Below, piece by piece: positions 2,654 through 62,982 of a DNA stretch of 64,000 nucleotides. This stretch comes from a virus. Lineage: Duplodnaviria; Heunggongvirae; Uroviricota; Caudoviricetes. The translations under genes and the position numbers were made by a program. The notes below the pieces were generated by a model. The model searched no databases, had not been told where the DNA came from, and saw only the letters and a list, made by a program, of their open reading frames with translations. The stretch lies in IMG/VR virus record IMGVR_UViG_3300025364_000002. One strand, written 5' to 3'. The first letter of the stretch is position 1. Each line of letters opens with the position of its first letter.

Positions 2654-3877
2654 TCAGTTTTCAAGGTGTTGCAAAACCGTATCGAGGAAGCTGTTTGACC
2701 AACCACCATCAACATGCCGCTTTGACTGAATCCAATCGACAAGACCGCTTACACGGCCCTGGTACTGCTCCATCATCGGCGCCATCCATCCCTTTCGGGC
2801 CTGAACAGCAAGCGCAAACATCTTACGATGCTCCTTGGAGCCCTTCTCATGGATCCAACCCCGACTTTCGTTCCATGCTGCAACCTCTGCAAGACAAGCC
2901 TCGTAAACATCACGATAGTTTGCCACCAGGTCACGGAATGATGCCTGCAACTTGTGTGCCCGATCCACAACGTGGTCCGGGAATAGCGGCAGTGCATCGT
3001 CGAGCTTCTCCAAAAGAAGCAACTCCACGAGTCCCCGAGGAGACTTCAATACCGAGTCACGAACCTTGTTCAGGGCAAGATAGCCGGCATTCTTAATCTT
3101 GATACGGCGAAAATGCTGGTCGCAGACCACAATTCCTTCGTGCTTTATCGGATCACATGAAGAAACAAAATCAACAAGTTCAGAAACTGAACCAAAACGA
3201 TAACGCTCTGCTGTTGGCGTCTTCACCTGAGCTTGAACAAAGGCCGGACGAAGTTCCTTACCTGTTGCCGTTTTGCGAGCAGCAAGCAAAGTAATGCTGT
3301 GTCCTTCATATTCAACAACGATACGATTCGCAGGACTGGTTAATTCAAACATGTAAGTTGTGTCACGAAATAGTTGTGCTGATGTCCACGATTCAAAATC
3401 TTTGCCGACAGTTTCTTCTAATGCTTTCTCAAAAAGGGTGCGAAAAGTATATTCACCAGATCCATCCACTGGAAGGTTTGCTTCTGGCAATGAGCGAGTT
3501 GCAACATGCCATTCATTCTTCACATCATCATAATAAACGATACAAAGCGTTCCGTCCATCTTTTCATAGAAGGAAGTTGCCGGATGATTAAAATCAACTT
3601 CGGCAGCCGCAGACTGTCCATAGTTGAAAAAACGATCAAATGATCGAGCCAATATAACTGTATCACCAATTGGACGAGTCAAATCAATCAACTCTTGAAT
3701 TTTGGTTGGTCGAAGAATAAGACCACGGCACTGCTGTGCCAGTAAGTCATCTTCACGAGATTCAATATGGTCATAGTTCAATGAAAACTTGTACTCGTGC
3801 ACACGAGCTTTGACGCCATGCTCACGCTCCAAGTCTTCAAGAGACTTGGTTTTCAAATACTCACGAACAAAAACCAT
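2654..3877 (-). CDS. ATP-dependent RNA ligase, Rnl1-like (covalent nucleotidyltransferase superfamily)
   Basis: Motif I KxDG (EKMDGT), motif IV EGIVV, motif V KIKN in correct order in a 407-aa protein. Confidence 0.75.
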   Translation of the reverse strand: MVFVREYLKTKSLEDLEREHGVKARVHEYKFSLNYDHIESREDDLLAQQCRGLILRPTKIQELIDLTRPIGDTVILARSFDRFFNYGQSAAAEVDFNHPATSFYEKMDGTLCIVYYDDVKNEWHVATRSLPEANLPVDGSGEYTFRTLFEKALEETVGKDFESWTSAQLFRDTTYMFELTSPANRIVVEYEGHSITLLAARKTATGKELRPAFVQAQVKTPTAERYRFGSVSELVDFVSSCDPIKHEGIVVCDQHFRRIKIKNAGYLALNKVRDSVLKSPRGLVELLLLEKLDDALPLFPDHVVDRAHKLQASFRDLVANYRDVYEACLAEVAAWNESRGWIHEKGSKEHRKMFALAVQARKGWMAPMMEQYQGRVSGLVDWIQSKRHVDGGWSNSFLDTVLQHLEN

Positions 3878-4228: not shown

Positions 4229-4477
4229 TTAAACCGTTTGGTAAAACTCCTCAGCAACACAACAATATTGAAAAAATGTTCTTCTGCAAAAGTAGTGGTT
4301 TTTAATTTCCTTCCCCGTCAGGAAAAAACCATCAAATCCATTACCGTCATCATCCCAACAAACATGAGTAAAAAGCACGGGCTCATTGTTGAACCTTCCT
4401 GGCAAAACCAGAAGTTTGCCAATGAACCTACACGGGTTATCATGAAGTGGATTGCTAGTTTGAGACTTGAGTGCCAT
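4229..4477 (-). CDS. Hypothetical protein
   Basis: 82-aa ORF; shares stop/start boundary with the upstream phosphoesterase gene. Confidence 0.35.
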   Translation of the reverse strand: MALKSQTSNPLHDNPCRFIGKLLVLPGRFNNEPVLFTHVCWDDDGNGFDGFFLTGKEIKNHYFCRRTFFQYCCVAEEFYQTV

Positions 4478-8017: not shown

Positions 8018-8338
8018 TTATCCACCCATTTTCTCGTATTCGGACCAGTATGCCTCCTCAATCGGATCAGGAATGGCAGTTGAACCTTGCTCATATCCGT
8101 TTTCGTTGAGCCATTTTTCTACTCTACTCCACTCGTCAAGTTTAATTAAACCATCAAATTTTCCACCACCAACCCGGTTGGTTATGAATTTAATTTTATT
8201 GTCAATCATCCACTGGTAAAAGAGCGTGCAATCTTGATGATGTTGTTTGTTAACCTTATATGGGTCCCGCTCTGGAGAAGCTACTGTAATCCAAATATAG
8301 GCACCAGCCTCCCACTTAACACTTTTCTTTTCACTCAT
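8018..8338 (-). CDS. Hypothetical protein
   Basis: 106-aa ORF. Confidence 0.45.
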   Translation of the reverse strand: MSEKKSVKWEAGAYIWITVASPERDPYKVNKQHHQDCTLFYQWMIDNKIKFITNRVGGGKFDGLIKLDEWSRVEKWLNENGYEQGSTAIPDPIEEAYWSEYEKMGG

Positions 8339-8741
8339 TTTTGAATCCTGTAGCGTGCTTCATCTTGCGGTAAATTTTTGATTCAATGCGGTCACCTTCA
8401 ACAAGGTAATACCATGGTTTGGCACGGCCCCAGGTGAAAAACAGTGCCTTAACCGGTCCTTCAACAATTTCTTGAATTTTGTGAAAATTATTTCTTGTCA
8501 TTAATGACACAGTTCCTGGGGATTTGCGAAAGAGACCCTTCAGCCCTTTTGAAATATATGAGCCCCGCAGAACAACAGTAATGAAGTTCCAAGGATGGCT
8601 GTGTAAATGAAAATCTTGATCGGCTTTATGTATGGTGTGAACATAAAGGCCAAAAAATGTAGTTTGAATAATTGCATATCTTTCGAAATGCAATTCGCCT
8701 TTCCTACTTCGTATCTCTTTAACTTTTTGGAAAATTTTCAT
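8331..8741 (-). CDS. Hypothetical protein
   Basis: 136-aa ORF. Confidence 0.45.
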   Translation of the reverse strand: MKIFQKVKEIRSRKGELHFERYAIIQTTFFGLYVHTIHKADQDFHLHSHPWNFITVVLRGSYISKGLKGLFRKSPGTVSLMTRNNFHKIQEIVEGPVKALFFTWGRAKPWYYLVEGDRIESKIYRKMKHATGFKNE

Positions 8742-11926: not shown

Positions 11927-12559
11927 CTAACAATAACACTCATACATTGGTTTACGACACCTGTTACAGGTTCTGGAATTCTTCCTTTTGAAGATTTCCC
12001 AGCAAACTTTGCAATAAGTTCCTGCAAAATGACGACCTACCGGTGGATTAGGAAGTTCTTTTTTGCAGGTCGAGCAAATATACAAGTCTTCTTTGGCGAA
12101 CTTAATCAAGTTAAATAGCGTTACCACGAAAAGAGGGGCTCCTTCTTCAACCAAATTATCAAAACTGGAAATGCCAAAGGGACCTTCCTTACCCAAGGCT
12201 GACATGCCATCGTCCGCCCAACGGTCAAAGACTATTGTGGTGTTTGGAAAACCTTCTTTATTCTCACAAGATACAGAAACCATTATAGTAACATAATTTT
12301 TTTTATCCCCCCCAGGTGGTTTTTCTCTACCAACACATTCACCAGTAACAACATTGTAGGAAAGTGTGCGATTGACAGTGACAGAACGATATTTGGCGGG
12401 GTGATACGGGTTTTCCCTTAAAGAAAGGATTTTTTCCTTGGCCTGACTCATTACCCAAATTGATGGGCTTTGATCACCAATCATGCATCGTGTACATAAT
12501 TCGTATTCGCCATAACCTGACCAACATTGGTTTTCACAATTTTTGCAAATATTTGGCAT
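11927..12559 (-). CDS. Cys-rich zinc-ribbon protein
   Basis: Several CxxC pairs at both termini (CKNCENQC, CTRC ... CSTCKK, CKVC, CNRCRK...CYC). Confidence 0.5.
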   Translation of the reverse strand: MPNICKNCENQCWSGYGEYELCTRCMIGDQSPSIWVMSQAKEKILSLRENPYHPAKYRSVTVNRTLSYNVVTGECVGREKPPGGDKKNYVTIMVSVSCENKEGFPNTTIVFDRWADDGMSALGKEGPFGISSFDNLVEEGAPLFVVTLFNLIKFAKEDLYICSTCKKELPNPPVGRHFAGTYCKVCWEIFKRKNSRTCNRCRKPMYECYC

Positions 12560-12595
12560 TTAGTTTTCTAACATCAAAGATTTTATAAAATCTTG

Positions 12596-13102
12596 TCAAA
12601 ACTCAACTGGTTTAGTTGCCTTTTCAGTTTTCTCCATAAGTGGCTGTGACGCTTTTTCAAAAACAGAGACAGTGCGAGGATTGTGCTTCAATCTATCATA
12701 GAAATTGAGTATAGGTGTGAAGATAATTCCAAGGAAAATAAACACAACCATGATAGTATAAATAGGCAAAGCAATAATGGCAGATGGTAGTATCAGCAAT
12801 GCGTGATGCCATTCTACCAAATAAAATTTATCGTTCATTAATTTGGCTACTGTTTCGTTTGTAAATTTACAACAAAAACTCGCAGACCAAAGAATGCCAG
12901 CCAAGCCCCCAATAAAGCCAATGACGGCACTCATGAACCAAATTAGCATCATGGCGTTAGCCATTGATTTGCCAACCAAGGCGAAAAGCAGACTTGATTT
13001 GAATCCAGTGCCCAGCACAAAGACCCAAGATACGGGGATTGCTGACAATACTGTTGCCAAAATAACCAGCAACAAAGCTCTAACAATGTTCAGTCGGTAC
13101 AT
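12596..13102 (-). CDS. Polytopic membrane protein
   Basis: At least four hydrophobic helices in 168 aa. Confidence 0.5.
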   Translation of the reverse strand: MYRLNIVRALLLVILATVLSAIPVSWVFVLGTGFKSSLLFALVGKSMANAMMLIWFMSAVIGFIGGLAGILWSASFCCKFTNETVAKLMNDKFYLVEWHHALLILPSAIIALPIYTIMVVFIFLGIIFTPILNFYDRLKHNPRTVSVFEKASQPLMEKTEKATKPVEF

Positions 13103-13109
13103 ATTATCT

Positions 13110-14525
13110 TTACAATAGTGTTGGAAATAGAACTACATCACGGAGAGTGGTTTGGTTAGTCATAATGGCAACAAATCTGTCCACTCCCATTCCCAAGCCT
13201 GAACAAGGTGGCATGCCATATTCCATGCACTCAAGAAAATCTTCCTCAAGCATCATGGCCTCGTCATCGCCGTCCTCACGGGCAGCCATCTGTTCCTCCA
13301 ACAACTGTCGCTGTAGAACAGCGTCAGTAAGCTCCGTGTAACACTTCACAAGCTCCCAGCCATTGACAATAAACTGCCACTGCTCGACCGTGCGGCCGTC
13401 TTCGCTTCGCTGTGCGAGAGGACTCATGTGAGCCGGGTAATCCTTGAGGAAAATCGGCTGAACAAGGTTTGGCCGCACCTTCTCCTTAAACATTTCGTCG
13501 ATTTCCTTTGCAGAACTCAACGACCAGGGCGAAATTCCAGTATATTGCTCAAATACCGCAGCATAAGACCTTACCGGAGGATCGGTAAAATCAAGCTTGG
13601 TCCCCTGATATTCGACAATCATCCTCTTAATAAGAGGAGAAGCGGGATCGTTTGAATATTCATGACCGGCCGCAAAGAAAAGGTAAGACAAAAGCATCTT
13701 AAACAACTCAAGGTTGTCCATATAACTCATGTAAGCGCCATACCACTCAACCGAGGTAAACTCCTGCAAGTGGGAAGGATCGACCCCTTCATTGCGAAAG
13801 TTCTTTCCGATCTCATACACTCGATCAAAAGAAGCTGCAACAGCACGCTTCAAGTAAGTCTCAGGTGCAATACGAAGATAAAGATCGGCATCCAGTGCAT
13901 GATGATGCGTCTGAAAAGGACGAGCCTGGGCTCCTGAAGCCCGAGTCTGTAAGATCGGGGTTTCCACTTCCATGAAACCGTAGCGCTCCAGAAACTTACG
14001 AAGCTCCGAAACAATCCGAGAACGGGTCACGAAAACCTGCTTCACATCAGGGTTCATGACAATATCAAGGTAACGCTTACGAAGACGTAGCTCCGGATCA
14101 ACAATTCCATCAACCTTATTTGGGAAGGGATGGATTGGATCACGGAGAACCTTGAAAGCACGGTTTACCAAAACCGTCTTCTCGCCAGTAGTGGAAGTCC
14201 ACATTTCACCTTCAATGGTGATAATACTGCCCATCTTTACAGCCTTCATCCACCCCTTGAAGCTTTCGGGGGTTTCACGCTTGTTGAAACAAAACTGAAT
14301 CTTTCCAGACTGATCGACAAGCTTTCCGAAAGCAATGGAGCCAAGTCGTCGAAAATTAACAACCCGACCCGCAAGAGTAACAGCGTGGCCGTCCCTAAGC
14401 TCAAGAGCATTGCTGGCCATCCAAGTTTGGTAGACGCCCTTTTCCACAAACTCCGAAAACTTCGGCTTGCGGACGGTCTCGGCCAACTGTTCAAGAGTAC
14501 CTTCTTCATTACTTAGAGTAGACAT
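13110..14525 (-). CDS. lysS: Lysyl-tRNA synthetase, class II (N-terminal OB anticodon-binding domain plus class IIb catalytic core)
   Basis: Class IIb motif 2 KNFRNEGVD...EFTSVEWYGAY; 471 aa; strong SD (AAGGGAGAGA) upstream. Confidence 0.8.
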   Translation of the reverse strand: MSTLSNEEGTLEQLAETVRKPKFSEFVEKGVYQTWMASNALELRDGHAVTLAGRVVNFRRLGSIAFGKLVDQSGKIQFCFNKRETPESFKGWMKAVKMGSIITIEGEMWTSTTGEKTVLVNRAFKVLRDPIHPFPNKVDGIVDPELRLRKRYLDIVMNPDVKQVFVTRSRIVSELRKFLERYGFMEVETPILQTRASGAQARPFQTHHHALDADLYLRIAPETYLKRAVAASFDRVYEIGKNFRNEGVDPSHLQEFTSVEWYGAYMSYMDNLELFKMLLSYLFFAAGHEYSNDPASPLIKRMIVEYQGTKLDFTDPPVRSYAAVFEQYTGISPWSLSSAKEIDEMFKEKVRPNLVQPIFLKDYPAHMSPLAQRSEDGRTVEQWQFIVNGWELVKCYTELTDAVLQRQLLEEQMAAREDGDDEAMMLEEDFLECMEYGMPPCSGLGMGVDRFVAIMTNQTTLRDVVLFPTLL

Positions 14526-23069: not shown

Positions 23070-23467
23070 TAGCCCTTACCTTTGTTAGATGGCGACAATG
23101 CCAACAAACGAAATTTTCTCATGTCTTTTCTGATTTTTTTAATCAATTTTTGAGTTCTCTTAGAAGGAGACTTGGTAAGAAATCCTCTGCCCCGAAACTT
23201 ATCATAGTCTGGCAATCTGGTAAACTGTGTTGCAGTAATGTCAACCACTTCACCAGTTTTACGATGTTTTAAAAGCCAATGTATATCACCCTCATGTCTA
23301 AGAGTTCCAGGCTTCCACTCTGAACTATTGTTACAAAGATGATAAAAAGCTTCAGAAGCAACATAGCAGTGACCTTTCAGTTGATTTGATTCGCCTCTGT
23401 ATTTGGGCTTTCTCAAATCATCTGAAAGGTTCTTTTTAATAAGCCTGATTATTGTTTCGTTTTTCAC
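23069..23467 (-). CDS. Hypothetical basic protein
   Basis: 132-aa ORF. Confidence 0.45.
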   Translation of the reverse strand: MKNETIIRLIKKNLSDDLRKPKYRGESNQLKGHCYVASEAFYHLCNNSSEWKPGTLRHEGDIHWLLKHRKTGEVVDITATQFTRLPDYDKFRGRGFLTKSPSKRTQKLIKKIRKDMRKFRLLALSPSNKGKG

Positions 23468-24372
23468 TTCTTTTTTGGAAAGAATTTGCTAAGTCGTCGC
23501 ATCGTGCTTGCAAGTTGGCGCATTCTTCGACGACTATCATCATACCATTCACGATCCAGTCGCTCACGTTGGCCCATCCGCTTTACAACCTCATTGAGGA
23601 AATCGATTGTGTTGTGTACGTCTGTAGAAATGTCAATCCACTCTTGAGTAAACTGAACCTCTTTAGCAGTTTTTCGTTCTTTACGTCTCCTTTTCTCTAT
23701 ATCTTTAACAGTGACACCCAGCTCTTCGGCCAATTCTTTCTTGCACCTATTGGCCCGCCTTCGCTGAATTTTCAGCAAGTTTTTGCGGTACCATTCAAGA
23801 CAAAGTTGAAATTCATTTATTTGTTCAATATTCTCAAAATTAGTATATATTTGCTCGACCCTCGGTATAGAACGGCCATAAACTTTGTTGAGAATGTCTT
23901 CAGGAATTTCAGGGGGAGAACGCAACTGACGAATTTTTCGATTTGCGGGAGTGTCTGCAAGGTCGTTGGTGATTTCCAAATCAGGAAAATCCTCTTTCAT
24001 CACTGACAAAACATGGCGCTTATTAAAACTCCAAAGATTCAACTTTTCGTCAAACCCCCATTTCTGGGAAAAAACCATCCATTCATCTGGCGGATCATCC
24101 ACATGGCGAATTAATCGCCACGGACGTTCTTTGAGCTTTTTTCCAAAGCCTTGCCTGTGAGTTTCAGTCGGATGAAGCTTTAAAACGAAATCACCAACCC
24201 GCCGTTCAATATGTTTTCGATCTGGCCAAGGCGACCAAGGAAGTTCACCAAATTCAGGTCTTGGATTGAGTCTGCAATCTAGGTCATCAAGATTATATGG
24301 AATGTGAAATGCAAAAGTTCTTCCCTCACGGAAGTGAGGCACTTCTACCAATTCTTCTTTGTAGTGTGACAC
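23464..24372 (-). CDS. Hypothetical protein with basic C-terminus
   Basis: 302-aa ORF. Confidence 0.5.
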   Translation of the reverse strand: MSHYKEELVEVPHFREGRTFAFHIPYNLDDLDCRLNPRPEFGELPWSPWPDRKHIERRVGDFVLKLHPTETHRQGFGKKLKERPWRLIRHVDDPPDEWMVFSQKWGFDEKLNLWSFNKRHVLSVMKEDFPDLEITNDLADTPANRKIRQLRSPPEIPEDILNKVYGRSIPRVEQIYTNFENIEQINEFQLCLEWYRKNLLKIQRRRANRCKKELAEELGVTVKDIEKRRRKERKTAKEVQFTQEWIDISTDVHNTIDFLNEVVKRMGQRERLDREWYDDSRRRMRQLASTMRRLSKFFPKKK

Positions 24373-24569
24373 ATATCCCCCTAGAGGTTAGGGTTTATTG
24401 CTTAGGTTTCGGACAAAGTATAGCATGAACCTGATCGCCTTCGAACCCATTGGGCAATTTATCAACATCGTTCTTATCTTCGAGATATATTTCCCAGCAA
24501 AATACACCATTTGATGTTGTCCCGGAACCAACAGCCCATGCAGACTTTGCTCCGTTTTCTCTGCAATGT

Positions 24570-24917
24570 TCAAAAAGTCTCTGATGAGGTGCTTTTAGCA
24601 TTTTCGGATTTAGTCTGCTCTTTTTCTTTAGCTTTTTCATACTTTAAAGCTCTCTCTGCCGCTCTTTTATGTTCAGAAATGGCATATGCCTCCTGACTAA
24701 GAACGGTGAACACCAGGGGATATCCTGCCAATTTACCATTTGTCTCTTTCAAGACAACTTCTTTGAATTCACTATTTTCAAGGTAAATTCTCATACGCCT
24801 ATTACGGCTACCATCGCCTTCAATTGCAGCCCCCCAAGCATCATTACCAATTTTCTTATTGAGGGCGAAGAATGCCTTTTCCCAATCTTCTAAGTTTTCG
24901 AATTTGCGTCCATCCAT
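24570..24917 (-). CDS. Hypothetical protein
   Basis: 115-aa ORF. Confidence 0.4.
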   Translation of the reverse strand: MDGRKFENLEDWEKAFFALNKKIGNDAWGAAIEGDGSRNRRMRIYLENSEFKEVVLKETNGKLAGYPLVFTVLSQEAYAISEHKRAAERALKYEKAKEKEQTKSENAKSTSSETF

Positions 24918-26701: not shown

Positions 26702-26723
26702 GACAAGTCTTCGTTGAGGTTAA

Positions 26724-26807
26724 TACCCAGGGTGGGACTCGAACCCACAAGGGCTTGCGCCCGGAAGATTTTGAATCTCCTACGTATGCCAATTCCGTCA
26801 CCTGGGC
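26724..26807 (-). tRNA. tRNA-Leu(CAA), type II with long variable arm
   Basis: Cloverleaf folded by hand: acceptor GCCCAGG/CCTGGGT, anticodon stem GGAGA/TCTTC with loop TTCAAAA (anticodon CAA), variable arm CGGGCGCAAGCCCTTG, T-arm GTGGG-TTCGAGT-CCCAC, discriminator A; 84 nt, CCA not encoded. Confidence 0.8.
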
Positions 26808-26810
26808 ATG

Positions 26811-35986: not shown

Positions 35987-37573
35987 CTAACCTCGATATC
36001 GATTAATCAGGGACTCCACCTCAGTCTGGAGTAAATCACTTCTTCGACCCGCAGAAAATGGCATTTCATCGAATTCACGGATTACACGAGCCTCACAGGT
36101 CATGAAATCATCAGTGAAGCCAGGGCCGAAAGGTTCATCAGAAGTGCCATCGTAATAGGTAACCAATGCATCATCACCAAGTTCGCCAGGTGCCGCAAGA
36201 GTGACCCCAGAGGTAAGGGCAATATCATCACGGAGAACCATGCATTCTGGGAGAGTCTGCTTACCAGGAGAATTGCTCAACTTGATAACTGGACGATCGT
36301 CGTTGCCGACAGCACAGAGAGCAAATTTGGTGCTCATGTGGTCCCTGTTGATATTGTTACGAAGATGCCCGCCAATACTGAAAATACCACATCGCCATGG
36401 AACAAAACCGGCCGCAAGAGCTGCGTCGGTAATTTGAAGAACACTATCAAACGATTCACCGTTACCAACAATAAATCGAAGCGTGGTAGAAACATGACGT
36501 GTGACACCATCAGCACACAAGTGCTCAGCCATAAGCCCAGCCTGATGTGCCTTTTGTAGAGTACCAATCACCATATCTGTCGAATCGCCTGAATCAGGAC
36601 GGGCAACAACGGTTCTTCCAGAGCCATCCGCCTGAGCCCTAAGGGCAAGGGGGATAAGGTGTTTCTCAAGCGCAGCCCAATAATCATAACAATCACCAAC
36701 CATGCTGAGTAATTCGTGATTGTCAGCAGTATCGTACATGTTCTCATAACAGTCGCCTTCGACTGCATAACCCTGCACGATGCGATGCGCAAGAGCTTTC
36801 ACCGAAGAGCCAAAAGCAGCTGGTGCGCCATTTTTCCAGTTCTGGAAAGCAGCACGGAACGTGTCCGTACCAAACCAGACATAGTTGTGAACCCGACCCA
36901 CCAATTCCGATTCCATTGGAGATGCTGCTGCCCTGTCGCCGAAATCATGAATCATGAGTCGGGCAAAAAACATGCACTCCTCGTCGCTAACCGAGTCAGG
37001 CTCAAATTTCCTGATGAGATTGTAGGCATACTTCAAAAAGTGTCGAGCGGCGGTCAAACGCTCCGTGGCAGCCCAAACATGCAGCAGGGTGGACTCGAAC
37101 CAAGGAACCAGCGGTCCAAACCCAGGCTCTGTAGCCTCCACCCTGAGGAATGGCTCGTGCGGATAAATTACAGAGCCTTCGGGCATTCCAACGACCTTGA
37201 GTGGAAGGTAGCCTCCGTATTCCTTGACGACTCGTCGCCACATTTCCTCAGGAAATTCGAAATCGTCAAAAGATCCGTCGTACTTTGCCTTTCGGCCCTT
37301 CAAAAATTCGATAGTCTCATCGATTTCGGAATTGGTGATCGGATCGTAAAAAAGCAAGTCGCAAAGCTGTTGCAAACCAGCAAAGACAATACGCTGGTCT
37401 TCAGGCGAATAAAACGGCTCATGTGCATGAGGAAACTTCCTGAAAGTACCGTAATACTTGGAATTTTCCGTAGCCTCTTGGCTCTCGAAGGTAAATCCGT
37501 TAATGGTGTAAGCGTCACTCCAGAGCATTCTGGGTGTTCTATGATATCTTCTTGCGGGTAGTTTCTTTGCCAT
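35987..37573 (-). CDS. nadV: Nicotinamide phosphoribosyltransferase (NadV/NAMPT-like, type II PRTase family)
   Basis: 528 aa with family-typical segments (IHDFGDR, long central PRTase core); GC-rich relative to flanks. Confidence 0.75.
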   Translation of the reverse strand: MAKKLPARRYHRTPRMLWSDAYTINGFTFESQEATENSKYYGTFRKFPHAHEPFYSPEDQRIVFAGLQQLCDLLFYDPITNSEIDETIEFLKGRKAKYDGSFDDFEFPEEMWRRVVKEYGGYLPLKVVGMPEGSVIYPHEPFLRVEATEPGFGPLVPWFESTLLHVWAATERLTAARHFLKYAYNLIRKFEPDSVSDEECMFFARLMIHDFGDRAAASPMESELVGRVHNYVWFGTDTFRAAFQNWKNGAPAAFGSSVKALAHRIVQGYAVEGDCYENMYDTADNHELLSMVGDCYDYWAALEKHLIPLALRAQADGSGRTVVARPDSGDSTDMVIGTLQKAHQAGLMAEHLCADGVTRHVSTTLRFIVGNGESFDSVLQITDAALAAGFVPWRCGIFSIGGHLRNNINRDHMSTKFALCAVGNDDRPVIKLSNSPGKQTLPECMVLRDDIALTSGVTLAAPGELGDDALVTYYDGTSDEPFGPGFTDDFMTCEARVIREFDEMPFSAGRRSDLLQTEVESLINRYRG

Positions 37574-45883: not shown

Positions 45884-46309
45884 CTAAGCAACATATACTA
45901 AACCATAATATTTGCCGACAGTTCTCTTGAACTTCCATTCGCCAAGCAAAACTCCATAAGTGCAGGCAGACTTTTGAAGAGCATGGAGAAAATCGGAATC
46001 ACGAATATAAAACAACTGTTTCGTTTCTGTATGTTCCAGAATTAACTGAGTGGTGGAATTGCAACTAATAAATCGTTCAACTTTGAAAGCGGCTTTGAAT
46101 GGAGAATTATCTTTCCAGGTGACATTTAGATTATTATATCTTTTTCTGTTGACATAGTCAAAGTAACTAACGACGGAAACGTTCTTACCGCACGTCCACG
46201 GGACTCCCTTTTGGGTCCATGGGATTTGATAATCTTCACTTTTTTTATTCATTTGTTTCGAGCTGCCCCCTAACCATCCTATCTTTTCGACCTTTATATT
46301 TTCGGTCAT
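45884..46309 (-). CDS. Paralogue family member A (family defined in this window: ...KPFKAxF...LLGEWxFKR...)
   Basis: Shares SPFKAAFKVERF...GVLLGEWKFKRTVGKYYGLVYVA with 49740..50144 and 50125..50535. Confidence 0.5.
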   Translation of the reverse strand: MTENIKVEKIGWLGGSSKQMNKKSEDYQIPWTQKGVPWTCGKNVSVVSYFDYVNRKRYNNLNVTWKDNSPFKAAFKVERFISCNSTTQLILEHTETKQLFYIRDSDFLHALQKSACTYGVLLGEWKFKRTVGKYYGLVYVA

Positions 46310-47165
46310 AGGATTCTAACTGACGCAAATCCAAATTTGCATCCTTGCTTTTCATTGTTCCACCGCTCAGAAACAATTCAATCATTCTATCCTTTGTAAG
46401 AATTTTGGTTGTTTTGTCATCTTTCGAGGGACCCCATCCAAGCCTTGCCAAGAAATTAAGCATTGCATCAGGATCATATCCACTGTCAATATACAATTGA
46501 AATGTTGAAGCTTGTTCTCTTTTTGAGAGTTTTTTTCCCTGATGACGCAAAAGTCCAACGTGACTATATTTTGGCAAAACGCCGCCAAGGAGGTCATACA
46601 ACAAAACCTGCTTTGCTGTATTTGTAATGTGGTCCACGCCTCGAATTATATGATTGATGTCCATTTCAATATCATCAACTACAGAAGCAAAATGATAAGT
46701 GGGACTACCGTCAGATTTGATCAATGTTAGATTATCAAACCCCCGAACATTGTCCGCCCGAATGGGAATGTTGCCAGCAATATCATCAACCCAATAACTT
46801 CTGGAAAGAAAATCACCAACAAGATTTAAATGAACTCGCTTACCATCTCGAACGGCTTTGCCACTGTCTACCAGAAACGACACGGCAGCATCATAATGCT
46901 CCATTCTTTTACTCTGGTAGTCTAAACCATCCCAATCAAGCCCAAGCCACTCAAGGCTTTTCAAAAATTGGTCAGCCCATCTCTGCTCTGACCTTTCAAG
47001 ATCGGTGTCATCAATCCTAACAAAAAACTTACCACCAGAAGCTCTGGCGGCAAGCCAATTGAAATAAGCAGTTCTCATTGTACCCAAATGAGTAGGGCCT
47101 GTAGGTGAAGGTGCGATTCTAGTAAAAAACTTCATATTGCGCCACTTTGTCCAAAAAATGTCCAA
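46245..47165 (-). CDS. Truncated class-I glutamyl-tRNA-synthetase catalytic core, glutamyl-Q tRNA(Asp) synthetase (YadB/GluQ)-like
   Basis: HIGH-region RIAPSPTGPTHLGTMRTA and KMSKS-like KLSKR; 306 aa with no anticodon-binding domain. Confidence 0.7.
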   Translation of the reverse strand: MDIFWTKWRNMKFFTRIAPSPTGPTHLGTMRTAYFNWLAARASGGKFFVRIDDTDLERSEQRWADQFLKSLEWLGLDWDGLDYQSKRMEHYDAAVSFLVDSGKAVRDGKRVHLNLVGDFLSRSYWVDDIAGNIPIRADNVRGFDNLTLIKSDGSPTYHFASVVDDIEMDINHIIRGVDHITNTAKQVLLYDLLGGVLPKYSHVGLLRHQGKKLSKREQASTFQLYIDSGYDPDAMLNFLARLGWGPSKDDKTTKILTKDRMIELFLSGGTMKSKDANLDLRQLESYDRKYKGRKDRMVRGQLETNE

Positions 47166-47398
47166 GCTACATTTTCCCCGGAGAGTTTTGGTTCGCCTTC
47201 GTCGAAGGTATTTCTAATAGGCAACTCATGAACCTCTGCTACAACAGAGCAATGAATGGCTTGTGCATGATCAATAGCTACATCTAGACTATCACAAGGC
47301 CCTTGAAAATTTAAACCTTCGTAAGTATGCTCAAATACAAGGCAAAATAACATTATACCATCTTCAGATGGCAGAAATCTTCTTCTGTCATCCAGCAT
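47132..47398 (-). CDS. Hypothetical protein
   Basis: 88-aa ORF. Confidence 0.35.
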   Translation of the reverse strand: MLDDRRRFLPSEDGIMLFCLVFEHTYEGLNFQGPCDSLDVAIDHAQAIHCSVVAEVHELPIRNTFDEGEPKLSGENVAWTFFGQSGAI

Positions 47399-47528
47399 TC
47401 TCTGTCCTTAAAAAGGACCGTTGCTCCCAAATAATCATTTGGAAAATATATTTTTCCCCACTTGCCATACTTTTGGCCAACATACTTTGGAGAGTTGCAA
47501 CTGTTTTTGATGGCCAAAACATACCATA

Positions 47529-47957
47529 TCATTTTGAAAGATCAACAGGAATGCGAACCTTACGGAGATAGTCAGCAATTTGCTGAATGGCGTGTTCAAC
47601 AACGCCTTCGGACGGATTTGTGATCATATCCATCCTGAAGTGTTCTCCTGGGCCCTGAACACCCCAACTGCAAAGCATGAAAACATCATCGTCTTCCATA
47701 ACGAATGAAATTCTACCGTGATTGGACTGCGGAAAATCAAATCCTTGATAGTAGACGATCATCTCTCCCTCGCCAATTTCAACATCACTATATTGCCTTG
47801 TTTCAGCAACACATGAATATGTCCAAGAAAGACCTTGGCGGGCAAGATGTTTACATGCGATACCAATATATTCACATGTTTTATTATGATTCACGTTTTT
47901 CTCCAAACAACTGATCATAATAAACAAACCCAATGAGTTCTTGTTTATCCTTTTCAA
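47529..47957 (-). CDS. Hypothetical protein
   Basis: 142-aa ORF. Confidence 0.45.
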   Translation of the reverse strand: MKRINKNSLGLFIMISCLEKNVNHNKTCEYIGIACKHLARQGLSWTYSCVAETRQYSDVEIGEGEMIVYYQGFDFPQSNHGRISFVMEDDDVFMLCSWGVQGPGEHFRMDMITNPSEGVVEHAIQQIADYLRKVRIPVDLSK

Positions 47958-48387: not shown

Positions 48388-48422
48388 TTTTTTTGCTTTC
48401 CAATTTGTTTCATCTTTTTAGC

Positions 48423-48496
48423 GAGACCTGTGGGATTTGAACCCACATCACTCCGGGTTAAAGCCGGCCGCATTACCAATTTTCTGCCAAGGTCCC
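48423..48496 (-). tRNA. tRNA with anticodon UUA (ochre-type suppressor tRNA; type I, 74 nt)
   Basis: Hand-folded: acceptor GGGACCT/AGGTCTC (one G-U), U8, D-loop with GG, anticodon stem CCGG/CCGG with 7-nt loop C-U-U-U-A-A-C (U33, anticodon UUA, A37), 5-nt variable loop, T-arm GTGGG-TTCAAAT-CCCAC, discriminator G. Confidence 0.65.
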
Positions 48497-49739: not shown

Positions 49740-50144
49740 TTAGGCTAAGCAAACACTTAGGTATCGTCCTGATTTACGGAAAACCCATTCACCCACAAAC
49801 ACACCAGCAATAGCCGGCAGCGTTTTAAGTAGTTGAACAAAGTCTTCTTCCTTCATGACATATTCATAACCGTTTTCGGTATCATGAAGAACTGCTTGAC
49901 AACTCGTACTCTGGTTTGAACTGTAAAGATGCGAAAGACTGAGCCCTGCCTTAAACGGCTTGTTTTCTTTCCATTCAATTGGTTCGGATTTGCGAATGTA
50001 GCCATACCCTCCAATATTTGGATGCGCCATGTCGCAAGTTTCAGAATCTTTTTTGGGGCATTGACGTGGAACACATCCATGCTTTCCTACCACGTGAGGA
50101 ACCAAAAAATTTTTATCGTCTTTTTCAGTCATTGTTAAATTCAT
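49740..50144 (-). CDS. Paralogue family member B
   Basis: EPIEWKENKPFKAGLSL...GVFVGEWVFRKSGRYLSVCLA. Confidence 0.5.
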   Translation of the reverse strand: MNLTMTEKDDKNFLVPHVVGKHGCVPRQCPKKDSETCDMAHPNIGGYGYIRKSEPIEWKENKPFKAGLSLSHLYSSNQSTSCQAVLHDTENGYEYVMKEEDFVQLLKTLPAIAGVFVGEWVFRKSGRYLSVCLA

Positions 50145-50535
50145 TAGCCTTTTCGGCAGGAACTATTGAAAGAAAGCCACCATAACTATGAAAAACCCAT
50201 TCGCCAAGACAAACACCCATAATCCACGTTGTTTTATCCATCATTTCATTGAAAAGATCTTCGCCAACATAATAAGTGGCCTCTGTTTCCGTATTTCTCA
50301 TCAAGAACTGAACTGACGAACGTTTGTTTACAACCCTATCAAATCTCAGAGCGGCTTTGAACGGCTTATTTTTCCTCCACTCAATTGGCTCGCCATCGGC
50401 TCGTTTGTTGATGGTCCAATCGTATCTTCCAGGCCAATGTGTTTATTTTCGCTTGGGGCGTCGCCAAGGAACAGAACCATCTGGGTAAAATGGAATTTCA
50501 TCCTCATAAGGATTTTTGAGCTTTCTATTTGTCAT
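50125..50535 (-). pseudogene. Paralogue family member C, interrupted by a single in-frame TAA at 50443..50445 (codon 31); the remaining ~106 codons stay in frame and conserved
   Basis: Hand translation: MTNRKLKNPYEDEIPFYPDGSVPWRRPKRK-TAA-THWPGRYDWTINKRADGEPIEWRKNKPFKAALRF...GVCLGEWVFHSYGGFLSIVPAEKANEFNND*. Confidence 0.55.
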
Positions 50536-50537
50536 CA

Positions 50538-50894
50538 CTATTCTTTTTCAGTATTAAGTTTAGCGATAAGTGGATCATTAGGGCCAAGATATTCAACCAA
50601 TTTATCTGGCCTTGCAAGCAGCCATTGATCACTCGTGATTGGCTTTCCTTCACATTCTGGTGGAAAAATTTCTATTTGTGGACAGTTGCCCCAATCTACA
50701 TCAGCTTCGGAAATATATCCCCATCCATATTCCGTGCCCTCCCAACCAGGATCAAAAAATATTTTTGTGGAATCTTCTACGTTAACAACACCCCATTCAT
50801 GTTGGCCAAAGTATACTTGGACATGCAATTCATCTTCATGCTTGTGAATTGGACCATGTTCATGCCAGTTTGCTTTGGGGTGTGCCCTAAGCAA
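50538..50894 (-). CDS. Hypothetical protein, possible cupin-like fold
   Basis: HEHGPIHKHEDELHVQVYFG resembles the cupin G(x)5HxH(x)3-4E(x)6G motif. Confidence 0.35.
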   Translation of the reverse strand: MLRAHPKANWHEHGPIHKHEDELHVQVYFGQHEWGVVNVEDSTKIFFDPGWEGTEYGWGYISEADVDWGNCPQIEIFPPECEGKPITSDQWLLARPDKLVEYLGPNDPLIAKLNTEKE

Positions 50895-50923
50895 ATCTTC
50901 TTATGATTTATAAACCTTTACTT

Positions 50924-51553
50924 TCATTTTTTTCGCTTGTTGTTTTCTTTCAGCATGTTGATAAAGGTTAGCCCTTGTTCCCTCGCATCATCAATTGCCA
51001 CATGAGTATGAGGCATATTTTTAGGAAACCACCGTTTTGGCCAAAAGCGTTTGCTTGTTTTCTTGTAACCTGTTTGTCTCATTGCCATCACATAAGTTCG
51101 TACGTCTACACAAGAATGACTAAAAAGAGAATGACCAGTAAAATGCTTCATATACCAGTACATAAAAAGAAAATCAAAGCCGGATGGCATACAAACCATC
51201 ACAGGTTTATATGTGCTTCCACATAATCTTTTTACCCATTTATCAAATGCCTTAAAGGCATCTTTAGGTTTCTGAAGATTTCTCCTGTGAGCATTCCACG
51301 CATCTGGAAATTGCTTCCACCATTCCATGGTGGAAGCATCTGGCTGGGCACCGGGAAGCAACTCTAGGTTTGCTTCAAAAAAATCTAATTCTTCCCCATC
51401 TTCGGTAAAAGCAACAACACCAAAGCTGAGCAATGAATTGATTGCAGGCAATGGACCATCGGTTTCAATGTCCGTGCTAAAATATAATTCTTTCATTTGA
51501 TTATCTGTAACAGGATCTTTGTACGATAACGCAAACATCCGAACCTGGCACAT
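50924..51553 (-). CDS. DEDDh-type 3'-5' exonuclease (DnaQ/RNase T/oligoribonuclease superfamily)
   Basis: Exo I FSTDIETDG (DxE) and Exo III HVAIDDARE (H-x4-D) motifs. Confidence 0.7.
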   Translation of the reverse strand: MCQVRMFALSYKDPVTDNQMKELYFSTDIETDGPLPAINSLLSFGVVAFTEDGEELDFFEANLELLPGAQPDASTMEWWKQFPDAWNAHRRNLQKPKDAFKAFDKWVKRLCGSTYKPVMVCMPSGFDFLFMYWYMKHFTGHSLFSHSCVDVRTYVMAMRQTGYKKTSKRFWPKRWFPKNMPHTHVAIDDAREQGLTFINMLKENNKRKK

Positions 51554-53892: not shown

Positions 53893-53942
53893 GCTTTATT
53901 CCATAAAAAAGCCACACCATATAGGTGTGGCCTATTATTTAT

Positions 53943-54029
53943 TGGACCCGATCGGAATTGAACCGATGTCCTCAAGATCGCCTAAAAAAACTTCTACGTT
54001 ACCTAGTTTGATTTTCAGATTACCGGTCC
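53943..54029 (-). tRNA. tRNA-like element (87 nt): T-arm ATCGG-TTCAATT-CCGAT, acceptor GGACCGG/CGGGTCC (one mismatch), discriminator A; internal arms not resolved
   Basis: Reverse complement folded by hand; possibly a type-II tRNA or degenerate tRNA. Confidence 0.3.
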
Positions 54030-54399
54030 GAGGTATCAGACAACCAACCGGGTTCTTTCATTTGAAATCTTGATCAGACAGCCAATAGAAATCTAACTCT
54101 AGTCTAATCCAGTCCTAATAACGACGCCTTATAGAATGCAAGGACACTCAAGCTATAAGACGGCTCTCATCAAGCAGCGAGAGCAAGAGGTGCATTGTCT
54201 GCATTTATAATCGTTTATTGGATTTAAGTGGTTCTAAACACCCACCGTAACGCCATTTTTTCTTCTTACCCCAAGTCGAAACCAGTACGGGCCCATGTCA
54301 AAGAACAATACCTTGAGAGTATACCTAGTAAGTATTAGGTTGTAAACTGCTTGACTTCTTTCTTTTTGGTGTCATTTACTTCAAAATCTTGCTAAAAAT

Positions 54400-62501: not shown

Positions 62502-62876
62502 TTAATTGCACTCGGCATCATATTGTCTAATAAATTGTTCCATATAACGGCGTCGCCTCTCTTCCGCAGATGGAGTTGTATTCCAATCAAAATCTGGCTC
62601 AAGAAAGCGTCGATATATCTCAACACTCTCTCGATTATCTTCACAAAAATTCTCCAAATCTCTTTGAATAACTTGCTGCGGTTCAACCTGTCGTGGTTGT
62701 TCGCTTCCAGCTGAAGACCAGCTTGGCCCAGCATTCCAGGGAAGGTATGGTTTATCACAACCAACGCAACCCAAAGCAATCAAGAATGCAGCAAGAATTA
62801 TTCCAACTTCAACCAATAAGACTAAAGGCATTGTTAAGATTTTTTTTCTAGCTCTTTTTCTGTCAAACAATATCAT
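62502..62876 (-). CDS. Membrane-anchored hypothetical protein
   Basis: N-terminal TM helix (LVLLVEVGIILAAFLIALG). Confidence 0.4.
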   Translation of the reverse strand: MILFDRKRARKKILTMPLVLLVEVGIILAAFLIALGCVGCDKPYLPWNAGPSWSSAGSEQPRQVEPQQVIQRDLENFCEDNRESVEIYRRFLEPDFDWNTTPSAEERRRRYMEQFIRQYDAECN

Positions 62877-62982
62877 AAATTATCCACTCTTCCAAAGAAG
62901 ATAAACCAAAACATTAACCAAATAAACCAGACATAAAAAAACTGTGCTCAATGCACAGTTTTTTATAAACATGTCGTCGACA

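Follow-up and report, generated by a model that had tools for sequence, protein, structure and literature searches.

The locus described here raises the question of whether a phage gene interrupted by a single in-frame TAA still gives rise to a full-length protein, through a tRNA with a UUA anticodon encoded nearby, or has simply been inactivated. It lies in a 64-kb stretch of viral DNA, the whole of which is referred to as the window. The initial annotation offered programmed stop-codon readthrough and a recent nonsense mutation as alternatives; the second is favoured, with a sense codon at the position in every orthologue found, and suppression of the stop is retained as plausible. The gene, its component parts and its two local paralogues are as follows.

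50535..50125, minus strand: interrupted gene, a single frame of 30 codons, TAA, 105 sense codons and TGA
50446..50535, minus strand: 5' segment of the interrupted gene, ATG (50533-50535) and 29 further codons, MTNRKLKNPYEDEIPFYPDGSVPWRRPKRK
50443..50445, minus strand: in-frame TAA, codon 31, in the context AAA TAA ACA
50125..50442, minus strand: 3' segment of the interrupted gene, 105 sense codons (THWPGRYDW...EFNND), then TGA (50125-50127)
45884..46252 (within 45884..46309), minus strand: paralogue 1, 122 aa, identical to P0001, just downstream of a truncated GluRS gene
49740..50132 (within 49740..50144), minus strand: paralogue 2, 130 aa, identical to P0003

Read on the minus strand from 50535 to 50125, the frame is continuous apart from the TAA at codon 31, as first described, with neither a frameshift nor a second stop; the readthrough product is 136 aa, rather than the ~143 aa given originally. 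Four intact orthologues (P0002, P0004, P0005 and P0006) have N-termini homologous to the 5' segment, and the 3' segment carries the conserved motifs WxxNKPFKA and GEWxF. The ATG lies 2 nt past the TAG stop of the upstream gene, and the end of the interrupted gene is overlapped by the ATG of paralogue 2 within ATGACTGA. Alignment also upholds the assignment to a local paralogue family of three, with 37% identity to 49740..50144 and 30% to 45884..46309, and with W..N.PFKA and GEW.F common to all. Pfam and PHROGs contain no family for the three paralogues or for the neighbour gene upstream, and structure prediction describes the paralogue protein as a small, mostly beta-strand phage protein. A scan of the 64 kb for same-frame open segments around a single stop yielded no other convincing site away from gene junctions.

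The stop corresponds to residue 31 of a single predicted domain of ~135 aa. The N-terminal 30 residues belong to the confidently predicted fold (pLDDT 91-95), and the model is confident over residues 11-40, which include strand E16-19. The arrangement looked for in programmed readthrough of the Q-beta A1 or MuLV gag-pol type, a complete protein followed by an optional extension domain, is thus not found; the stop sits inside the one domain. Function might instead be kept by an N-terminally truncated protein made from an internal start past the TAA, and there is a 59-aa ORF (50125..50304) beginning at TTG-ATG, which one of the assemblies annotates as a 58-aa gene. This TTG-ATG is the first in-frame start and lies 47 codons downstream of the TAA, with no ATG, GTG or TTG in frame from the TAA up to the conserved KPFKAAL core, and the ORF is without the invariant motif W..N.PFKA and leaves out some 60% of the fold predicted for the single domain. 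We regard such a product as extremely improbable.

A single base separates the window from its orthologues at the stop, which would fit a sequencing or assembly error for a true GAA codon. An 8.4-kb stretch that includes the TAA is, however, 100% identical in contigs from different pipelines and runs (Logan SRR6201973, 181 kb, and ENA ERZ27249357, 461 kb), and L001 and L002 have the identical codon, TAA, at 50443-50445. The presence of the TAA in independent assemblies shows that it is not an artefact of a single one, and the identity with the 461-kb contig places the window in a phage-like genome of ~461 kb. An intact allele of this strain was absent from a search of 5.8 billion proteins, in which the nearest intact orthologue is 77% identical. 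The adjoining paralogue, P0003, is present on 14 contigs, of which seven exceed 200 kb, and flanking genes of this strain were found on 13-14 contigs, yet no intact allele more than 77% identical was recovered. An error at this position is hardly credible, and the TAA appears to be fixed in the sampled population of the strain. Megablast of the 45-53 kb region against GenBank phages gave no match.

The intact orthologues, which come from three other lineages of related phages of ~0.2-0.5 Mb, can be aligned over the stop at 96-99% coverage (E = 3e-48 and 2e-47), so that the similarity on either side of the TAA reflects homology and not chance. This agrees with the earlier observation that there is no frameshift and that conservation continues past the stop. 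P0002, P0004, P0005 and P0006 (131-139 aa, 66-77% identical) have Glu, Glu, Glu and Ser at the stop position. At the nucleotide level, six related loci (L005-L010) read CGT AAA GAA ACG CAT TGG where the window reads CGA AAA TAA ACA CAT TGG, and a further variant, L026, encodes Asp with a GAT-type codon. The TAA is therefore not conserved, the six loci having GAA and two other variants having Asp or Ser; the position itself is weakly conserved and usually acidic. Because the orthologues have a sense codon the TAA is derived, by a single G-to-T change of GAA (Glu) to TAA, and a nonsense origin specific to this lineage is close to certain, whether the allele is now buffered by a suppressor or dead. 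As judged from these alignments, the TAA is no recoding signal kept in evolution. Scans with protein patterns recovered no orthologues from IMG/VR or from JGI metagenome contigs.

The gene order is also kept in the relatives: a VanW-like gene, an exonuclease, the neighbour gene, the interrupted gene, the paralogue or paralogues, a 151-153-aa gene, PTH2, the tRNA or tRNAs and the truncated GluRS. Within this block a plain pseudogene, in which a redundant paralogue has been inactivated, the tRNA is irrelevant and no useful full-length protein is made, is the main rival to the reading that we prefer, and we consider it possible though on the unlikely side. It draws on the sense codon in the orthologues and on the two paralogues nearby, and it would predict further lesions or faster amino-acid change. 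Neither was seen: there is no frameshift or second stop, dN/dS is ~0.10-0.15 upstream and downstream of the stop (~0.14 downstream), in comparisons between lineages whose synonymous sites are saturated (dS >1.6 or undefined), and unique amino-acid changes number 8 on the window branch and 7 on its sister. On these comparisons the interrupted gene has been under purifying selection, with no decay besides the one stop. Such a lack of decay fits either continued selection or a very recent lesion, and the sampled genomes of the strain are all identical across the 8.4 kb checked, so that it fits a very recent inactivating mutation equally well.

A related contig bears on the dispensability of the block. 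L013 (IMGVR_UViG_3300009095_002019) is a 5-kb contig with 95-98% DNA identity to L005 and four clean deletions, by which 293 bp of the interrupted-gene orthologue is lost and its first 35 codons are left, the VanW-like gene is removed, and the exonuclease is fused to the neighbour gene. These deletions suggest that genes of the block are dispensable and prone to loss, which speaks for the pseudogene, although the contig may be a defective variant, an assembly chimera or a misassembly. Should L013 represent a real genome, the interrupted gene and its neighbour were lost independently elsewhere, which favours relaxed selection on the block.

The UUA-anticodon tRNA noted initially at ~2 kb from the TAA was recovered with both ARAGORN and Rfam, about 1.95 kb from the stop of the interrupted gene. 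The window gene (type a) and the pairs of such tRNAs in relatives are:

48421..48496, minus strand: ochre-suppressor tRNA, type a, anticodon UUA, 76 nt, short variable arm, G73 (ARAGORN)
L005:12030-12104 and 12527-12601: suppressor tRNA pair
L026:8049-8123 and 8532-8605: suppressor tRNA pair
L013:3878-3953 and 4375-4448: suppressor tRNA pair

Two UUA-anticodon tRNAs are thus encoded in each of the P0004 lineage (L005-L008), the P0002 lineage (L025, L026 and L029) and L013, in a slot, flanked by PTH2 on one side and the truncated GluRS on the other, that is the same in all lineages. The second of them, type b, comes closest to tRNA-Lys genes of phages (82% identity, full length); it is absent from the window lineage (window 47380-47560), where it has been lost. 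DNA-pattern scans for the tRNA recovered one 5-kb contig, with the same sequence in both collections searched (IMG/VR and JGI metagenomes). Type a scores 54.4 bits with the Rfam tRNA model in the window and 51.6-52.6 bits in the relatives, and across three lineages all 19 of its pairs are intact, five of them through compensatory double changes. The loop sequence CUUUAA is invariant, being retained in the orthologues from L005 and L026. The structural features of a functional suppressor, a selectively maintained cloverleaf whose 7-nt anticodon loop reads U33-UUA, are accordingly found, and the compensatory pattern indicates that the suppressor tRNA is under selection.

From what is established for ochre suppressors, a tRNA with a UUA anticodon should recognise every UAA at least in part, which weighs against the pseudogene, and the conservation and duplication of the tRNA with compensatory changes make suppression of the TAA mechanistically plausible. 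The clade has kept UAA-reading tRNAs for a long time although TAA serves as a terminator. The suppressor is older than the mutation, being found in relatives that lack the TAA, so that the interrupted gene does not account for its role; this is a point in favour of the pseudogene.

The window copy of type a also has peculiarities of its own, namely G73 in place of U73, C38 in place of A38 and a G2·U71 pair, and these could alter or abolish charging. Its D stem has 3 bp with a G13/A22 mismatch. Similarity searches for its amino-acid assignment gave only non-significant matches, with weak resemblance to phage tRNA-Lys. In E. coli the D-arm identity elements of tRNA-Glu are U11-A24 and U13-G22. 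By inspection these are missing from the window tRNA, which leaves synteny as the support for its otherwise attractive pairing with the truncated GluRS.

These tRNAs belong to a cluster of translation genes made up of tmRNA, PTH2, tRNAs and synthetases:

46245-47165, minus strand: truncated GluRS, about 296-306 aa, bacterial GluRS catalytic core
13110-14525, minus strand: class II lysyl-tRNA synthetase (LysRS), full-length, with an OB anticodon-binding domain (NCBIfam, 451 bits)
about 53940-54294, minus strand: tmRNA (Rfam, 127 bits), tag ADNAPLALAA
48755-49111: PTH2-type peptidyl-tRNA hydrolase
about 26723-26808: tRNA-Leu(CAA) (ARAGORN and Rfam)

The truncated GluRS adjoins the suppressor tRNAs in all lineages. 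It scores 190 bits to PDB GluRS chains (residues ~4-334) versus 95 bits to GluQRS/YadB, and keeps the HLG and KLSKR motifs but lacks the anticodon-binding domain. The tmRNA is kept in relatives at L005:4696-5052 (tag ANEAPLALAA) and L009:4088-4441.

Several other features of the window and its relatives are noted in passing. LysRS homologues 63-87% identical are spread over many contigs 100-250 kb long, presumably from a wider huge-phage clade. Mobile elements have inserted in relatives: in L032 (1531-6721) a block with Eco57I-like and NUMOD3 endonucleases directly follows LysRS, followed in turn by a 38-aa LysRS-like fragment, and at L006:10878-11717 a GIY-YIG homing endonuclease is inserted after the paralogue. 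The window also encodes, on the minus strand at 2654-3877 and 35987-37573, a T4 Rnl1-type RNA ligase and a NAMPT/NAPRTase-like enzyme, typical auxiliary genes of very large phages, of which the ligase possibly points to tRNA repair.

TAA is in ordinary use as a terminator in this genome. Among the approximately 118-120 window genes selected by coding potential under code 11, nearly all of them on the minus strand, TGA ends 55-57, TAA 41 and TAG 22; in the relatives TAA accounts for 25-50% of stops. TAA terminators in the window gene set show no enrichment of nearby backup stops, nor any signal of avoidance of A at +4 or of a 3' purine. A codon reassigned through a suppressor tRNA, as in phages of the code-15 or code-4 type, would be expected to be rare as a terminator, to fragment genes through many in-frame copies and to have a cognate suppressor tRNA. 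The last is encoded (the UUA-anticodon tRNA at 48421-48496), whereas TAA ends 41 of about 118-120 genes and the genes are well formed, with two in-frame TAAs over ~34 kb. With TAA ending about a third of window genes the codon is not reassigned, and the gene set indicates that the phage uses the standard code. The same usage means that suppression cannot be efficient, which again suits the pseudogene.

Some TAA-bounded arrangements elsewhere were set aside. Same-frame abutting gene pairs split by a TAA (for example, TAA-ATG at 8018, kept in L030) carry no information, because a start directly behind a stop is always in frame. A window scan for hidden N-terminal stops upstream of annotated starts gave five TAA and two others. 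At 62877-62970 on the minus strand, a 30-codon hydrophobic ORF is separated by a single TAA from gene 62502-62876 and looks like a separate small membrane ORF; at 24388-24570, also on the minus strand, a 61-codon segment with a single TAA before gene 23464-24372 has a negative coding score and looks non-coding.

A more complex picture emerges at the gene immediately upstream, which is also interrupted:

50538..50927, minus strand: upstream neighbour gene, whose ATG (50925-50927) overlaps the exonuclease stop as ATGA
50901-50903, minus strand: second in-frame TAA, codon 9 of the neighbour gene, found by tblastn against related loci

The ATGA overlap with the exonuclease stop is present also in L005. 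All six homologues compared have Arg at the position of the second TAA, and similarity extends upstream of it (VKVYKS*E versus VTVYKNRA). A TTG at 50892-50894, three codons past the stop, is a possible start for re-initiation, in which case the neighbour gene may lose just 11 residues. The initial annotation had set a sense codon in the orthologues, combined with a lack of other readthrough candidates, against readthrough; the sense codon is there, but so is a second candidate at 50901-50903.

The search for stops compared coding-score-filtered window genes with six or eight related loci by tblastn, covering ~34 kb of aligned window. It yielded exactly two in-frame stops inside conserved alignments, both TAA and both in adjacent genes, with no TAG or TGA interruption and no frameshift in the ~34 kb, no excess of amino-acid change alongside the TAAs, and no comparable in-frame stop inside conserved genes of the relatives' compared loci. 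Other tblastn matches sat at ORF ends and gene junctions and were treated as over-extended ORFs. That the neighbour gene has also been struck suggests a local relaxation of selection, as the pseudogene would have it. Against the pseudogene, both lesions can be read by the resident tRNA and neither is TAG or TGA, although with the codon usage of the window 42% of single-step nonsense changes give TAA, and two of two would do so by chance with p = 0.18. The adjacency of the two among roughly 60 compared genes is mildly non-random, at ~0.03 on a rough estimate.

Our preferred reading, to which we give a probability of roughly 0.55, is that a nonsense substitution arose in a probably dispensable accessory gene whose expression would remain leaky because of the ochre suppressor that the phage encodes. 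Translation would mostly stop after 30 residues, and a fraction of the ribosomes would insert an amino acid at the UAA and complete the 136-aa protein. The tRNA would have to be expressed and charged, to compete with RF1/RF2 at this codon and to read UAA part of the time, in the way of classical ochre suppressors. The suppressor would then buffer the nonsense alleles of both the interrupted gene and its neighbour, allowing them to persist without further decay.

A stronger role for the tRNA is conceivable, in which UAA readthrough is selected, as a programmed or regulatory device or as incipient reassignment of TAA, and expression of the genes depends on the phage suppressor. Consistent with this, suppressor tRNAs are conserved in a clade with saturated synonymous sites, the two TAAs lie in adjacent, translationally coupled genes about 2.5 kb or less from the tRNA, the genome also encodes LysRS, the truncated GluRS, PTH2 and tmRNA, and the preprint of Borges et al. 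(10.1101/2021.08.26.457843) proposes suppressor-dependent timing of expression for other stop codons. The TAA is, however, in no orthologue, no in-frame TAA occurs in conserved genes of the relatives' compared loci, TAA is not depleted as a terminator, and there are two sites only, both in small accessory genes; moreover, TAA recoding was not reported in a survey of 10,754 jumbo phages (PMC13037316). We consider selected readthrough unlikely. A long shot is that the clade as a whole (phages of ~0.2-0.5 Mb), which maintains one or two ochre-suppressor tRNAs, a LysRS and the GluRS core, is at an early, ambiguous stage of decoding UAA as sense, with the window lineage starting to accumulate in-frame TAAs in conserved genes, one of them at a Glu codon, that would be decoded by this machinery. 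The GluRS core, without its anticodon-binding domain, could in principle charge a tRNA whatever its anticodon, and if this were true it would be the first case of UAA decoded as sense in a bacteriophage.

Taken alone the interruption is nothing unusual: an accessory gene has recently acquired a nonsense mutation. Less ordinary is a standard-code huge-phage clade that keeps ochre suppressors beside translation genes, with one lineage carrying two in-frame TAAs in genes that otherwise look constrained. If the suppressor is active, this provides a natural test of what stop-reading tRNAs do in standard-code phages and of the sheltering of nonsense alleles, a proposed first step towards codon reassignment, for which a reporter pair is already at hand in the tRNA and the TAA site.

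Among known systems, the classical ochre suppressors offer one parallel. E. coli supG and supL are ochre suppressors derived from tRNA-Lys, with the anticodon UUA. They have in common with the present case a UUA-anticodon tRNA and, as far as these can be supposed here, partial reading of UAA and leaky nonsense alleles; the derivation from tRNA-Lys is echoed in the resemblance of the relatives' type b to phage tRNA-Lys and in the LysRS that the phage encodes. The classical suppressors are laboratory mutants, whereas here the tRNA is a natural gene conserved across a clade. Phage T4 suppressor tRNAs rescue nonsense mutants, according to McClain (1970) as cited in PMC8386662. Retained in-frame stops in bacterial genes, as presented in the argument from evolutionary conservation in PMC7918605, resemble our case in having a single stop in an otherwise constrained gene, and differ from it in that the stop here is not conserved.

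In the recoded phages described by Borges et al., TAG is read as Gln in Lak and crAss-like phages and TGA as Trp in Jade and Agate phages. The likeness lies in a large phage with a stop-reading tRNA, other translation genes and in-frame stops in conserved genes. The present system differs in that the codon is TAA, a common terminator for which recoding in phages has not been reported, with two sites in ~34 kb that are specific to one lineage, and it fails the defining tests of recoding, having few sites, no depletion of TAA and sites that are not common to relatives. Klebsiella phage phiKp24, for which no alternative code is reported, likewise has a TTA-anticodon suppressor tRNA (tRNA-Sup-TTA; PMC8386662). 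No in-frame TAA target is reported for phiKp24, whereas here a candidate target lies ~1.9 kb from a tRNA that is conserved, and duplicated, in the relatives.
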